Positions 11,616 to 61,311 of a stretch of DNA of 64,000 bases are shown one piece after another (position 1 is the first letter of the stretch; the number at the start of each line of letters is the position of its first letter). The notes below the pieces were generated by a model. It made no database searches, was not told where the DNA came from, and saw nothing but the letters and a program-made list of their open reading frames with translations. The translations under genes were made by a program, and so were the position numbers. This DNA is from a virus, in IMG/VR virus record IMGVR_UViG_3300019458_000032, positions 12,588 to 76,587 of that record; one strand, given 5' to 3'.

Positions 11616-12235
11616 AAGTAATAATCCCAGCATGCGGCTACGGAATCAGGATGGGGATGCAACCCAATGAATCTAAAGAGATGCTCATTGAAGAAATGCC
11701 TCATCCTGCTATGAAAAATTACAATCAACCAATTATTCAATATTCATTGGATATTTGTGAGCAATATAATTTAGATCCTATTGTAATAACTAGACCTCAC
11801 AAGGAAGATCTTATAGAATATCTTCATAAACACAGAATTGAAGTTATGATTCATCAACCCAAAGACGGTGAAGAGTGGGCATTAACAGTATTAGCTTCAC
11901 AAAGACATTGGGAAGAGAATAATTTATTATTACTACCCGATACAAGATTTCATAGCACGGGTATTGTTTTAGATATTGAAGAGGGTTTAAAATTGGGCAA
12001 TAATGCAGTATTTGCATTACATAACGTAGATGATCCTCATAACTGGGGAATTATTAAAGATTATAATTTAATTGAAAAACCCAAAACCCTTAGTGTTGGA
12101 AGATATTGGGCTTGGGGGTTAATTGCGTTTAAAGATTATTATGGAGAAGAACTATTTTCTTCAAAACAATTAACTTTAAAAGATGTTGGATTTTGTTATT
12201 TAGATCACTTTAGAGATATTACGAGAACTAAATGA
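11612..12235 (+). CDS. sugar-phosphate nucleotidyltransferase (NTP_transferase family)
   Basis: KVIIPACGYGIRM...KEML; LLPDT; WGII...EKP. Confidence 0.8.
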   Translation: MKVIIPACGYGIRMGMQPNESKEMLIEEMPHPAMKNYNQPIIQYSLDICEQYNLDPIVITRPHKEDLIEYLHKHRIEVMIHQPKDGEEWALTVLASQRHWEENNLLLLPDTRFHSTGIVLDIEEGLKLGNNAVFALHNVDDPHNWGIIKDYNLIEKPKTLSVGRYWAWGLIAFKDYYGEELFSSKQLTLKDVGFCYLDHFRDITRTK

Positions 12236-13299
12236 AAGATAACTTTGGATTTTATTATTACGATATTTCCAAATTTGAAGAACTTGTAGAACAGAAGTAT
12301 ATAAGAAAATCTGAAACAGATGATCTTGTTTTATACACATATACAGAACAAACAACTTATGAAAAATATTGGAATGACTATACAAGAGCCGCCAGAGGTT
12401 TAATTCTAGATAAACACACAGGAGAACTTGTTGCTAAACCTTTTCCTAAGTTTTTTAATTTAGGCGAAATGCCTGAAGTATATTTAACAAATCTTCCTTC
12501 TCTTGAATATACTGTATCCGAAAAAGTTGATGGTTCATTGGGTATTATTTATTTCTATAACAATAAATGGAATGTTGCAACAAAAGGTTCATTTGCTAGT
12601 GAACAATCAATTAAAGCTGAAGAAATATTAAAAAAATATGATTTAACTAAAATTAACACTAAAACAACTCTACTAGTTGAAATTATTTATCCTGAAAATA
12701 GAGTAGTTGTAGATTATAACAACGAAGAAAAACTTGTTTTAATCGGTGCTTATAATAATGTAACCGGTAACGAATTTATAGATTTAGATGTCTATTCAAA
12801 TTTAACTGGTTTGCCATTAAGAAAAACATATTCATACACAATCAATGAAATGATAAAGTTACAAAAAACTATTCCCAAGAATCAAGAGGGATTTGTTATT
12901 CGTTTCTCATCTGGATTAAGAATTAAAATTAAAGGCGAAGAGTATTTAAAAATACACAAAATTATATCTAATTTATCACCATTAAGTTTCTGGGAAGTTA
13001 TGGAAAATGGAAAAGTTCCTATTAACTATATTCAACAAGTACCAGAAGAATTTCTTGACCAATTTGAACCAATTGTAATTGAGTTAGAAAAACGATATAT
13101 TCAAATTAAAAAAGAAGTTGAAGAAGAATTTCACACTTTGCCAAATAAAGAATCTAGGAAAGAAGTAGGATTGCATCTTAAAAAATTTACATATAATCAT
13201 GAATCCGCAATGTTTCCTATGTTACTTGATAAAAAAGATGTTGTAGACAAATATATAATGAAACAAATTAGACCAAAGGGTAATAGCTTTAATTTATAA
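12232..13299 (+). CDS. T4 Rnl1-like RNA ligase
   Basis: ARGLI...KPFPKFFN, motif I EKVDGSLG, EGFVI, KIK-EEY. Confidence 0.9.
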   Translation: MKDNFGFYYYDISKFEELVEQKYIRKSETDDLVLYTYTEQTTYEKYWNDYTRAARGLILDKHTGELVAKPFPKFFNLGEMPEVYLTNLPSLEYTVSEKVDGSLGIIYFYNNKWNVATKGSFASEQSIKAEEILKKYDLTKINTKTTLLVEIIYPENRVVVDYNNEEKLVLIGAYNNVTGNEFIDLDVYSNLTGLPLRKTYSYTINEMIKLQKTIPKNQEGFVIRFSSGLRIKIKGEEYLKIHKIISNLSPLSFWEVMENGKVPINYIQQVPEEFLDQFEPIVIELEKRYIQIKKEVEEEFHTLPNKESRKEVGLHLKKFTYNHESAMFPMLLDKKDVVDKYIMKQIRPKGNSFNL

Positions 13300-58937: not shown

Positions 58938-59450
58938 TTAAATCAGATTTTTGAAGAATTTTTTACTCAAATCGTTTATAGCGTATATGGGAGAAATTAT
59001 TTTTAAATTATTTATTATTGAAGCAAATTCTTCAGCTTCAGGCATATTATTGAATACTCCAACCACTATATTTGTATAATATGTACTCTTCAGAGTTACA
59101 TATACAAGACTCTTCTTTATCTTAATAACAACCTTATATTTAGAAACTTGATTCTCGGCATATAGAGTATACCCCAATTCCTTGTAATATTCAACCCAAT
59201 ATTGATATTTCAATGATATATCAGATCTATCATCCTCTATTGTTTCTATAAATTCAAATTCAAGTTTATTACAATCCAATTGCATGTTTCTATAATTATG
59301 AACCCCACTACATAACATACCAATATGTCTTGTAACAGATCTTAATAAATCAATACTCCATGTAATATACAACCTCTTATCTTCTTTATTAATGAAGCAA
59401 TAAAGACCCATACGAGGTAGGTTATACAAGACTGTAAATAAGTTTACCAT
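58938..59450 (-). CDS. GIY-YIG-like nuclease domain protein (degenerate)
   Basis: GLYCFIN...LYITWS...RH...H-N...FEFIE...EY. Confidence 0.55.
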   Translation of the reverse strand: MVNLFTVLYNLPRMGLYCFINKEDKRLYITWSIDLLRSVTRHIGMLCSGVHNYRNMQLDCNKLEFEFIETIEDDRSDISLKYQYWVEYYKELGYTLYAENQVSKYKVVIKIKKSLVYVTLKSTYYTNIVVGVFNNMPEAEEFASIINNLKIISPIYAINDLSKKFFKNLI

Positions 59451-59455
59451 CTAAT

Positions 59456-59465
59456 ACAGTTGTTA
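59456..59465 (-). promoter_or_regulatory. phage promoter-like motif TAACAACTGT
   Basis: Only 5 bp from the ATG at 59450, implying a leaderless transcript. Confidence 0.6.
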
Positions 59466-59879
59466 ATAAAGCTGCATCTTACAACGCTTTACAATATCTT
59501 TAAAAATAGAAACAAATACAAAAGGTTAAATCTATTGTAAAGGTCTAATAGACAAGCTATTAGAGTTATTAGATGCAATATATTGGAGATAATAAACTAT
59601 GTTTCTATAATAAAAATCATGTAAGTATTTGTATTGACTGAGCATTAAGGGCAACACGTACTACGGTCCCTCTACCCCCCTCTACCTTATAGCTGACTCT
59701 GACGAGCTGTTTGAACAGAGGGTCGTTGATGAGTTTACTTCTTCTCTCTCTATCTCTACTATCCTATCTCTATTATCTATTCTCTTGCCTATTCTCTTGG
59801 TATACAGCATATGCTATACAGCTTAAGGGAATGGACGACAGCATTACCTAAGACCTTTTACATACATGCAAATTGCACC

Positions 59880-60000
59880 TGTCTACATTTTTGACAGTGT
59901 ATAGAAGTTTGACAGTGTAGTGATTTCACACACTTAAAGAGTTTCTGTATATTCTTTTGACAGTGGCGAACTTTTTTACAGATGTGATTTCAGCTACTTA
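59880..60000 (+). promoter_or_regulatory. duplicated enhancer-like array: 4x TGT-N11-ACA and 2x IHF-like sites
   Basis: Sites at 59880-96, 59898-914, 59946-62 and 59964-80 (last one TGG); TTTGACAGTG occurs three times; GTGATTTCA-N3-ACTTA at 59920 and 59984. Confidence 0.65.
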
Positions 60001-60004
60001 GCAC

Positions 60005-60021
60005 TTGGCACAGCGTCTGCA
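60005..60021 (+). promoter_or_regulatory. sigma-54 (-24/-12) promoter
   Basis: TTGGCACAGCGTCTGCA: GG(60007-8)-N10-GC(60019-20), close to consensus YTGGCACG-N4-TTGCW. Confidence 0.75.
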
Positions 60022-60032
60022 ATACTGGTTTG

Positions 60033-60446
60033 CAAGCGACGCAATTGTAGAACGTAGCCTCTGTCGTAGACGGCACCGCGATGTAACCAGTGCTTGTCTT
60101 GTTTCACCTAGAGGTTGTGCTTGAAGTGAGCAAGACTGTAAGTCATTGAGGGCGAGAAGCTAGTCGAAAGGTTGAGAGCTAACCTGTCTATGGCATGGGA
60201 AGAGTGAACACTCACGAGTACCATTAAGACCTAACAGCGTTAGATTAAATACCAAGTGGTCTCAATCTTATACCCTGTACTGAAGTCCTTTCGAGGATTG
60301 TATAGAAAATATGGTATTATAGCCGCTGAGAACAACGCACATGAGAACAACCCGAGCGATAAGACCCATGTCAAAGTTAGGGCTTATGTGAAATAAACTC
60401 AGTGAATTGCTATTGCTGACGTGTCTCGCGTTAGCAAGTGAATAGA
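60033..60446 (+). ncRNA. candidate large structured ncRNA/leader
   Basis: No + strand ORF of 60 aa or more, GC-enriched relative to flanks, many hairpins including a UUCG loop; bounded by the sigma-54 promoter and a hammerhead. Confidence 0.6.
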
Positions 60447-60516
60447 AGACGAAACAGGGAAATACTGTCAAAAGTATTCCCTGTAGCGTAGTTATTTCAC
60501 TACGCCTGATGAGTCT
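60447..60516 (+). ncRNA. hammerhead ribozyme, type II (HH1); predicted cleavage after GUA 60485
   Basis: AGAC-GAAA-[CAGGGAAATACT gtcaaa AGTATTCCCTG]-TA-[GCGTAG ttatttca CTACGC]-CTGATGA-GTCT. All core nucleotides and three stems present. Confidence 0.92.
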
Positions 60517-60538
60517 AATATTGTAAAGGAGAAATACA

Positions 60539-60808
60539 ATGGAAAATCAAGAGAAGTTAAATTCTATTCAAGCTCAAATTGAGGCTCTTAAAGCTGAAGC
60601 TAAAGCTTTAAAGCCGAAAAAAGAGCATACTCTCTCATTCAAAGTGAATGAGAAAGGTACAATTTCTGTATATGGATTGCAGAAATTTCCAGTGAGTTTG
60701 TATCCCACACAATGGGAAAAACTCTTTAAAACTATGCCTGAACTCATGAAGATTGTTCAGCCTTTAATTGACGCTGCTAAAGCTGCTAAAGAAGTTAAAA
60801 CAGCCTAA
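60539..60808 (+). CDS. small protein (coiled coil plus KV-EKG-ISVYGL-KFPVSLY-QW domain), flanked by two ribozymes
   Basis: AAGGAG RBS; first ORF after the sigma-54 promoter. Confidence 0.75.
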   Translation: MENQEKLNSIQAQIEALKAEAKALKPKKEHTLSFKVNEKGTISVYGLQKFPVSLYPTQWEKLFKTMPELMKIVQPLIDAAKAAKEVKTA

Positions 60809-60842
60809 TTCGACCTACCCTTCCCCTTACCCCTACCCTTAA

Positions 60843-60904
60843 GGTCGAAACGCTGTAGTGAGCCTATTACAGCGTCTGAGAGTGTATCTTTCACTGAGGA
60901 GACC
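60843..60904 (+). ncRNA. hammerhead ribozyme, type II (HH2); predicted cleavage after GUC 60876
   Basis: GGTC-GAAA-[CGCTGTAGT gagcct ATTACAGCG]-TC-[TGAGAG tgtat CTTTCA]-CTGAGGA-GACC. Confidence 0.9.
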
Positions 60905-60909
60905 ATAAG

Positions 60910-61311
60910 ATGATGACATATGATCGTGCTAGAGAGTTGTATAACTCTGCTAGAAATAAAGCTAAAGGAAAGCCTATAGGAAATAATCTTAGGCTTGTTA
61001 AAGTTTGTATGGTTGATAAGTATTACGAGCAAGAGGATGTAGTGATTACATTGCCTGTATATGGGATTGTTTATCACGACACTGTAATTGTAAAGATATA
61101 TCCTTGTGATGCACCGTTTAATGAATATAGGATATATAATGGTGGATGGTTCTCAATAACAACAAAGAAGAATATTAATAAGTTTATACCCTATACTGTT
61201 GTTCAACGAAAGGGTGAATGGTTTGTTCAAGTTGAAGGTAATCTTAAACCGTTTGTTGAAGGTTTAAAGTTGGGGATAAAATTAAATGTATTTCTGGCAC
61301 CTATTGTTTAA
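60910..61311 (+). CDS. phage hypothetical protein
   Basis: YHDT-IV...GGW-S-TTK-IN motif; SD GAGGAG lies within the HH2 core. Confidence 0.7.
   Translation: MMTYDRARELYNSARNKAKGKPIGNNLRLVKVCMVDKYYEQEDVVITLPVYGIVYHDTVIVKIYPCDAPFNEYRIYNGGWFSITTKKNINKFIPYTVVQRKGEWFVQVEGNLKPFVEGLKLGIKLNVFLAPIV

Follow-up and report, generated by a model that had tools for sequence, protein, structure and literature searches.

Two type II hammerhead motifs behind a predicted sigma-54-class promoter at the head of a rightward phage operon

The DNA analyzed here (the window; 64,000 nt, bases 12588–76587 of the 76,587-base IMG/VR virus record IMGVR_UViG_3300019458_000032, completeness rating 88%) carries on its + strand a sigma-54-class promoter motif, a leader lacking open reading frames (ORFs), and two type II hammerhead ribozyme motifs, HH1 and HH2, that bracket a gene for an 89-aa protein. 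We propose, with a probability of roughly 0.55, that a sigma-54-type promoter drives a rightward operon and that its transcript, which would open with a 415-nt leader, is cut by the two hammerheads. Positions are those of the window unless given as genome positions. Leftward genes (structural) occupy ~20950–59450 and rightward genes run from 60539 to the end of the record; the 1.09-kb divergent gap between them (59451–60538) heads the rightward block of small genes and contains the elements studied here. The source is most likely an uncultivated tailed phage of ~85 kb, with the gap as the control region of the rightward operon. The original prediction, made from the letters of this DNA, had placed upstream repeats, promoter, leader, HH1, 89-aa gene, and HH2 on the + strand in that order, and every element was found where it had been placed.

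Results

A -24/-12 promoter motif recurs upstream of one phage gene family

The promoter motif TGGCAC-AGCGT-CTGCA (TGGCACAGCGTCTGCA; 60006–60021, + strand) has the exact GG-N10-GC spacing of the sigma-54 class, differs from TGGCAC-N5-TTGCW by one mismatch (T to C before TGCA), and predicts a transcription start near 60032. Two sites in the window lie within one mismatch of this consensus, the second of them within a gene, and a second perfect sigma-54 motif at genome position 2673 was set aside because it lies inside an ORF. Abutting the -24 element on the + strand is a GTGATTTCA-N5-TTAGC box (59984–60000), a second copy of which occupies 59920–59936; GTGATTTCA-N3-ACTTA is likewise present twice, at 59920 and 59984. 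The box at 59984 resembles a site for integration host factor (IHF; WATCAANNNNTTR), with two mismatches here and one in most relatives. Farther upstream on the same strand are three 20-nt direct repeats (TGTnTAnnnnTTTGACAGTG; repeat family D1), which begin at 59880, 59898, and 59946, span 59880–59965, and each read TGT-N11-ACA. Their positions, approximately -152, -134, and -86 relative to the predicted start, make them candidate activator (enhancer) sites. No terminator-like sites were found on the + strand between 59300 and 61400.

A similar layout recurs upstream of 89-aa homologues in other phages, in which repeats precede a GTGATTTCA-N5-TT box and then TTGGCAC-N5-YTGCA. Locus L002 contains GTGATTTCA-N5-TTAGC-G-TTGGCAC-N5-CTGCA, a string nearly identical to that in the studied phage, with three further -24/-12 motifs just upstream, and continues with a 310-nt leader that lacks ORFs, after which come a hammerhead, the gene, and another hammerhead. 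The distance from the box to TTGGCAC is identical in L002, L011, L203, L211, L216, L242, and L251, and TGACA/TGTCA-type repeats occupy the matching place in L002, L006, L011, L059, and L203, with details that differ from phage to phage. Variant forms of the promoter occur in L006, L059, and L013, and some related phages have three to four tandem -24/-12 motifs, as in L242 with four.

Scanning IMG/VR for the box plus TTGGCAY returned 108 matches in viral contigs, most of them attributable to chance. Eight of the 108 had a -12 element at the right spacing, compared to ~0.8 expected, and five of these eight had a gene of the 89-aa family no more than 2.5 kb downstream, with the gene itself absent from the query. 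Because L163 is the contig of L002 and L166 that of L011, the five matches count as four distinct phage contigs. In all, the family was found downstream of the box-plus-promoter combination in L002, L011, L203, L211, and L242. Across 154 viral and metagenomic loci with homologues of the gene, the 1 kb ahead of the gene contained 12 strict motifs on the gene strand and 7 on the opposite one, and the sequence downstream of it 0 and 2, respectively, with ~0.3 expected per category. The motif was absent from 80 bacterial loci that carry the gene.

In G001 (84.6 kb, 99% complete), which contains L006 and whose capsid protein is 57% identical to that of the studied phage, marking it as a true relative, all four motifs lie in the early/control region and point toward the operon; of the five motifs in G003, four cluster within 700 bp. 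In total, the sigma-54 consensus is matched at more than 20 sites in different phages, where GG and GC are invariant at the exact spacing and the flanks vary, and many of these sites also carry a G after TGGCAC, as is typical of the sigma-54 consensus. Sequence comparison thus shows a sigma-54-type promoter motif with upstream repeats, of the kind predicted at this locus, to be conserved ahead of the 89-aa gene family in other phages.

Two complete hammerhead motifs flank the 89-aa gene

HH1 (60447–60516, + strand), which ends 22 nt before the ATG of the 89-aa gene and would be cut after A60485, reads 5′ to 3′ as AGAC, GAA, a stem III hairpin (60454–60484, A15.1 to U16.1), A17, a 7-bp stem I hairpin (60486–60505), the core CUGAUGA (60506–60512), and GUCU, with stem II formed by AGAC/GTCT. 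HH2 (60843–60904, + strand), which would be cut after C60876, follows the same plan with C17 and consists of stem II GGTC/GACC, stem III (60850–60875), stem I (60877–60894), and the core CUGAGGA (60895–60901), in which position 7 is free to vary; the GAGGAG ribosome-binding site of the gene that follows lies partly within this core. Both motifs contain all invariant core bases (C3-U4-G5-A6-N7-G8-A9 and G12-A13-A14), the A15.1-U16.1 and G10.1-C11.1 pairs, and a residue 17 other than G, and both have the helix order II(3′)-III(hairpin)-I(hairpin)-II(5′) with no mispair beside the core. Stems I, II, and III have 7, 4, and 8 bp in HH1, where stem III runs on past a bulge, and 6, 4, and 11 bp in HH2, whose stem II can be extended to 9 bp with one A-A mismatch. 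In HH1, loop I (UAUU) is complementary, as read from the sequence, to AAUA at 60517–60520 (4 bp), a possible counterpart of the type II consensus pseudoknot (PMC3088659), and also to GAAAUA at 60531–60536. By these features HH1 and HH2 are, as predicted, complete motifs on the coding strand in the standard position between cistrons.

Several analyses indicated that these motifs are unlikely to have arisen by chance. A strict descriptor covering all three hammerhead topologies on both strands of the 76,587-base genome found HH1 and HH2 only, whereas the background in 200 shuffles, for which stem thresholds were looser, was 0.095 hits per genome, and the strict descriptor returned no hits in more than 1.2 Mb of unrelated loci. 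When HH1 and HH2 were folded in isolation, the three-way junction was the minimum-energy structure of each, with z-scores of -5.2 for HH1 and -2.5 to -3.2 for HH2. We also built a covariance model, R1, from an ungapped alignment of 18 equal-length type II hammerheads from IMG/VR, none from this genome, and ran it over the whole window with filters off. HH2 was the top match (30.6 bits, E = 9.2e-7), followed by HH1 (21.9 bits, E = 3.7e-4); each aligned over the full length of the model, and the next match scored 11.9 bits. A third hammerhead-like stretch at 59690–59735 (CTGACGAG ... TGATGAG) was rejected, as it has no GAAA in register and did not match the descriptor; a relaxed energy-based scan added only long, weak, and implausible matches; and an alignment of five hammerheads made with MAFFT did not follow their structure and was set aside.

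The fragment between the two predicted cut sites (60486–60876) agrees in length and ORF content with the 391-nt fragment carrying the 89-aa gene that had been claimed. This protein is encoded at 60539–60808 on the + strand.

Hammerheads accompany the promoter in related phages

In the 154 loci, the only compact and convincing hammerheads adjoin the 89-aa homologue and lie on its strand. L002 has a type II hammerhead on each side of the gene, and the downstream one, which corresponds in position to HH2, passes the Rfam Hammerhead_II model RF02276 at 40.6 bits. In L006, the gene is preceded at a distance of 19 nt by a type III hammerhead and, 300 nt further upstream, by a type II hammerhead that scores 42.5 bits in Rfam, and L059 has a type II hammerhead just downstream of the gene. 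The different topology of the hammerhead at this position in G001, the closest relative, suggests selection for cutting there rather than inheritance of a sequence; no hammerhead was found downstream of the gene in G001. Searches of five such phages over their whole records placed type II hammerheads in the promoter-proximal stretch only. In L211 and L242, which were found through the promoter alone, a type III hammerhead lies ~1 kb downstream of the promoter.

Of the 154 loci, 10 contained a strict or variant -24/-12 motif, and hammerheads stood beside the gene in 3 of these 10 compared to 0 of the other 144 (~2e-4, calculated by hand); these phages, whose G+C content spans 33% to 55%, are partly related, and the events are not all independent. 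The synteny search that had been proposed thus found promoter and hammerheads recurring together beside the 89-aa gene family. Just upstream of the gene homologue in L059 (L059:3846–3918), a stem I-like hairpin is followed by CTGATGAG, with UUAA in place of GAAA; this looks, from its sequence, like a decayed or variant hammerhead at the position of HH1.

Type II hammerheads are not restricted to these relatives. A pattern scan of IMG/VR found them in more than 118 contigs (L343–L459; for example L387 and L357). Motifs of this type with UCGAAAC...GUC cores are abundant among viral contigs, and 36 locus strands carry 2–8 of them in tandem at spacings of 200–900 nt. For 166 type II hammerheads in other IMG/VR contigs, the median start was 1 nt after a stop codon and the median end 26 nt before the next start codon. 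HH1, 22 nt before its ATG, fits this spacing; HH2, 34 nt from the stop codon, is unusual.

A hairpin at the stop codon is predicted to lock HH2

The space between the 89-aa gene and HH2 contains a hairpin (60809–60849, + strand) that begins directly after the stop codon and has an 8-bp stem, in which TTCGACCT (60809–60816) pairs with AGGTCGAA (60842–60849), a segment comprising the 5′ strand of HH2 stem II plus GAA. This hairpin was the minimum-energy fold in context. In the segment 60780–60930, the helix of the hairpin had a probability of 0.97–0.995 versus 0.003 for stem II of HH2; when 60795–60821 was held single-stranded, as it would be under a terminating ribosome, the probability of HH2 stem II rose to 0.66. 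With HH2 locked by a hairpin at the stop codon in these models, its cutting, and with it the freeing of the ribosome-binding site of the next gene, may depend on translation of the 89-aa gene. The claim that the transcript is cut without protein may be too simple for HH2, which is predicted to be mostly in an inactive fold. The hairpin has a 25-nt C-rich loop (CTACCCTTCCCCTTACCCCTACCC, within 60815–60840) that resembles tracts at 59668–59800, where the + strand consists of pyrimidine-only sequence, CCCTCTACCCCCCTCTACC and then ~70 nt of CT-rich short repeats.

A leader segment, GTGAAATAAACT (60386–60397), is, apart from one extra A, the complement of HH1 loop I together with its 3′ stem I strand (AGTTATTTCAC, 60490–60500). 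In folds of 60380–60560, pairing between these segments displaced stem I of HH1 (stem I probability 0.011), and it may, according to this model, be a second anti-ribozyme pairing. The loop and top of HH1 stem III (ACTGTCAAAAGTAT, 60464–60477) are also an inverted copy of the core of the upstream repeats (ATTCTTTTGACAGT, 59951–59964), with 93% complementarity, and the upstream hammerhead of L002 has TGTGACAG in its stem III loop, which resembles the upstream repeats of L002 itself. Judged by sequence, the match between ACTGTCAAAAGTAT and ATTCTTTTGACAGT could be a downstream operator or chance.

The leader is long and ORF-less in each phage and dissimilar between phages

Between the predicted start and HH1 lies a 415-nt leader (60032–60446, + strand) with a G+C content of 0.45, compared to 0.33 for the window. 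On the + strand, 60022–60446 offers just two frames, one of 39 aa that starts with TTG and one of 46 aa that starts with GTG. The leaders of L002, L006, L059, and L242 are likewise ORF-less; of the five leaders, this one included, four have a higher G+C content than their loci, and three fold with z-scores of -3.2 to -4.6. For the leader studied here the z-score was just -1.9, and its comparison with Rfam returned no family. We found no sequence similarity among the five leaders (pairwise local-alignment z-scores all between -1.4 and 0.8), and a 10-nt word, TGAAATAAAC, shared by this leader and L002 was treated as chance in view of this overall dissimilarity. The 300-nt stretch between the two hammerheads of the closest relative would, by its sequence, be released as a separate RNA. 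Being ORF-less, mostly G+C-rich, and mutually dissimilar, these leaders point to a long, structured, fast-evolving leader as the shared feature and do not support a defined family of noncoding RNAs. Of the ~410-nt structured noncoding RNA envisaged in the original prediction, the absence of ORFs therefore stands, and the specific structured RNA finds no support in the z-score of -1.9, the Rfam comparison, or the comparison with equivalent leaders.

The flanked gene and the genome

The 89-aa protein is predicted to have an N-terminal coiled coil, a three-stranded sheet, and a long C-terminal helix (AlphaFold model, pLDDT 86.9). Fold searches gave weak PC4/Sub1-like (Z 4.2) and COMM-like matches, with Z up to 4.8, which the search tool itself rates as uninformative; comparison with Pfam gave coiled-coil noise only, and a sequence search of the PDB gave no match. 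Homologues, found by alignment-based search, are common in phage contigs, and the family shares the core KG-x-SVYG-x3-FPVTLY-x2-QW and has no Pfam entry. Species-representative genomes contain more than 420 matches (contigs L263–L342), with several copies in some genomes, and the bacterial homologues are mostly in Acidobacteriota (Bryobacterales, Terriglobia), Myxococcota, Bdellovibrionota, and Binatia. The next gene (60910–61311, + strand; 133 aa) belongs to phrog_554, has a weak Kyano_Gp96 match, and would be the first cistron of the remaining mRNA.

Genes in the record include those for a primase-helicase, a family B DNA polymerase, an Rnl1-type RNA ligase, a terminase, a portal protein, and a major capsid protein; the genome has a G+C content of ~33%, and searches for tRNA and tmRNA genes found none. 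The nearest GenBank phage is a Silvanigrella phage, with just 28–31% identity in the large terminase subunit (TerL) and capsid protein. A blastn comparison of the region with GenBank phages found no match, and single-sequence locus searches with the 89-aa, 133-aa, and TerL proteins recovered none. The Rnl1-family ligase (window 12232–13299; PF09511, 73 bits) and a stand-alone 148-aa AAA_33/tRNA-ligase-kinase-like protein (genome 10696–11142) are of types that act on 5′-OH RNA ends, the kind that hammerheads make.

Alternative explanations

A number of results weigh against the assignments made above. The sigma-54 match at this locus is a single site, and when such motifs are counted in the window by itself their number is not significant; the site alone is therefore unconvincing, and the case rests on the comparison with other phages. 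Most members of the gene family lack both the promoter motif and hammerheads, namely ~140 of the 154 loci and all of the 80 bacterial ones. Neither this phage nor any of five related records contained a Sigma54_activat domain scoring above the Pfam cut-off, and a search of the phage for rpoN (Sigma54_DBD) found no match. Two sigma-70-like sites with 10 of 12 matches lie upstream, at 59584–59611 and 59925–59953. For the ribozymes, the pseudoknot between loop I and the tail of HH2 comprises just 3 bp (AUA/UAU) as read from the sequence. The probability of stem II was below 0.01 for both ribozymes in longer context under a nearest-neighbor model, which ignores tertiary contacts and co-transcriptional folding. 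The comparison with Rfam hammerhead models, named as a check in the original prediction, went against it, as these models (RF02276, gathering score 37 bits) missed HH1 and HH2 even at E-values up to 10. Rfam scans of the window and of 59400–61200 reported no ribozyme and no credible family, the best result being a spurious JA01 match inside an ORF. The miss probably reflects the RF02276 seed, which has a 6-bp stem III and a particular pseudoknot, whereas stem III of HH1 and HH2 has 11–12 bp.

Part of this evidence would fit a model in which the hammerheads cut but transcription begins at an upstream sigma-70-type or other promoter, and in which TGGCAC-N5-CTGCA together with the GTGATTTCA box is a conserved site for another protein, such as a phage regulator. 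We regard this as a real but minor possibility. The sigma-70-like sites, the failure to find an activator or rpoN gene in the phage or its relatives, the unusual nearness of the GTGATTTCA box to the -24 element for an IHF site, and the fact that the literature we searched contains no description of a sigma-54-dependent phage promoter are all consistent with it. Sigma-70-like sites, however, are no commoner here than in shuffled sequence (6 found, 7.7 expected), and the invariant GG and GC at exact spacing, the frequent G after TGGCAC, and the variable flanks of the more than 20 phage sites are what one would expect of sigma-54 promoters.

A second alternative holds that the hammerhead motifs are inactive relics or chance look-alikes and that the region is simply a long 5′ untranslated region with intergenic spacers. 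The Rfam result, the stem II of just 4 bp in both motifs, and the competing folds that dominate in longer context speak for it. We nonetheless consider it very unlikely, as two perfect cores with long stems lie less than 400 nt apart on the coding strand when 0.095 are expected per genome and none were found in the control DNA, the independent model R1 gives significant E-values, and hammerheads hold the same positions in other phages, with a type III motif in the closest relative, which argues for selection for cutting there. Finally, the 60486–60876 unit, bounded by two same-strand hammerheads, might be circularized or re-ligated after its ends are healed and sealed by the phage kinase-like protein and Rnl1-type ligase or by host RtcB, yielding a circular mRNA for the 89-aa protein or a spliced transcript, a re-ligation possibility raised by Perreault et al. 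(PMC3088659); this seems far-fetched, given that those authors sought such products and found none (PMC3088659), that neither a 3′-end healing enzyme nor RtcB was found in the phage, that G001 has no hammerhead downstream of the gene, and that Rnl1 plus kinase is a common phage set for tRNA repair with no known link to ribozymes.

Discussion

In the mechanism that we favor, namely sigma-54-type transcription followed by hammerhead cutting, host sigma-54 RNA polymerase would read the -24/-12 promoter and start near 60032, for which it would require an ATP-dependent activator bound at the upstream repeats, and a host activator may gate the promoter. Gene order suggests that the product may be a first or early transcript. 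Motif, fold, and comparison suggest that this RNA, with its 415-nt untranslated leader, would be cut after A60485 and C60876 into the leader RNA, a 391-nt mRNA encoding the 89-aa protein alone, and a downstream polycistronic mRNA. Because the type II stem II is a short open helix (4 bp) and would be the sole link between products, these would be expected to part after cleavage. Each upstream product would then have a 3′ end with the stem III hairpin and a 2′,3′-cyclic phosphate, and each downstream mRNA would begin with a 5′-OH and the stem I hairpin, 22 nt (HH1) or 5 nt (HH2) before the start codon. The net effect would be to remove the leader and to define hairpin-protected mRNA ends, making the arrangement a natural insulator of the 5′ untranslated region and an end protector.

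A broader idea is that of a recurrent module, in which host sigma-54 polymerase and an activator fire the operon, hammerheads release a fast-evolving, G+C-enriched leader RNA of 300–460 nt, which runs from transcription start to hammerhead in this phage and L002 and from hammerhead to hammerhead in the closest relative, and HH2 is a translation-gated switch that would cut and expose the following ribosome-binding site once translation of the first gene is complete and not before. We think this idea unlikely to hold in full. If true, the module would be the first natural ribosome-controlled hammerhead and the first phage operon built on sigma-54. The present locus is a compact case, with a predicted start, two cut sites bounding a single-gene mRNA, and a computed anti-ribozyme hairpin at a site that a terminating ribosome would open. 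Should the promoter be sigma-54 dependent, the start of the operon would be tied to a host activator and ATP hydrolysis, linking infection to the signaling state of the host. The combination of promoter box and hammerhead signature also offers a simple handle for finding more members in metagenomes.

Parts of this proposal resemble known systems. The polycistronic early RNA of phage T7 is cut between cistrons by host RNase III, giving 5′-phosphate and 3′-OH ends; cutting between cistrons would be similar here, except that the RNA itself would cut, leaving 5′-OH and cyclic-phosphate ends. Synthetic ribozyme insulators such as RiboJ remove a variable 5′ leader and leave an mRNA with a defined, hairpin-protected end. 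The control region resembles bacterial sigma-54 promoters (glnAp2, nifH, Pu) in its GG-N10-GC spacing, its TGGCAC and TGCA elements, its repeats at approximately -85 to -150, and the IHF-like box between, and differs from them in lying in a phage genome in which no activator was found, in having the IHF-like box abut the -24 element, and in having tandem motif copies in relatives. Compared to Rfam RF02276 (Hammerhead_II), HH1 and HH2 have the same core, helix order, and open stem II, and the syntenic L002 hammerhead and one L006 hammerhead pass the gathering score; stem III is longer in HH1 and HH2 than in the seed, and loop I and the 3′ tail differ from the seed pseudoknot.

The closest precedent was described in 2011, when Perreault et al. 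(PMC3088659) reported type II hammerheads with a pseudoknot between loop I and the tail (at least 4 bp in most members), in clusters flanking single prophage genes, such as the triple hammerhead around ardA in A. tumefaciens; they showed cleavage in vitro and proposed that the ribozymes cut long phage RNAs into gene-length mRNAs. A 2019 review still called the purpose of bacterial and phage hammerheads unresolved (PMC6765202). The novelty originally claimed for ribozyme processing of polycistronic phage RNA is thus preempted (PMC3088659); for a sigma-54 promoter recurrently paired with hammerheads we found no description in the literature searched, a limited search that is no proof of novelty. 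The newer element would be, from sequence comparison, the sigma-54-type control region recurrently paired with promoter-proximal hammerheads. Like the clusters of Perreault et al. (PMC3088659), HH1 and HH2 are same-strand type II motifs that bracket one small phage gene and have a possible pseudoknot between loop I and the 3′ tail. Unlike those clusters, they are confined to the first kilobase of the operon, downstream of a sigma-54-type promoter and a long leader lacking ORFs; an anti-ribozyme hairpin at the stop codon accompanies HH2, and the flanked gene comes from one recurrent family.

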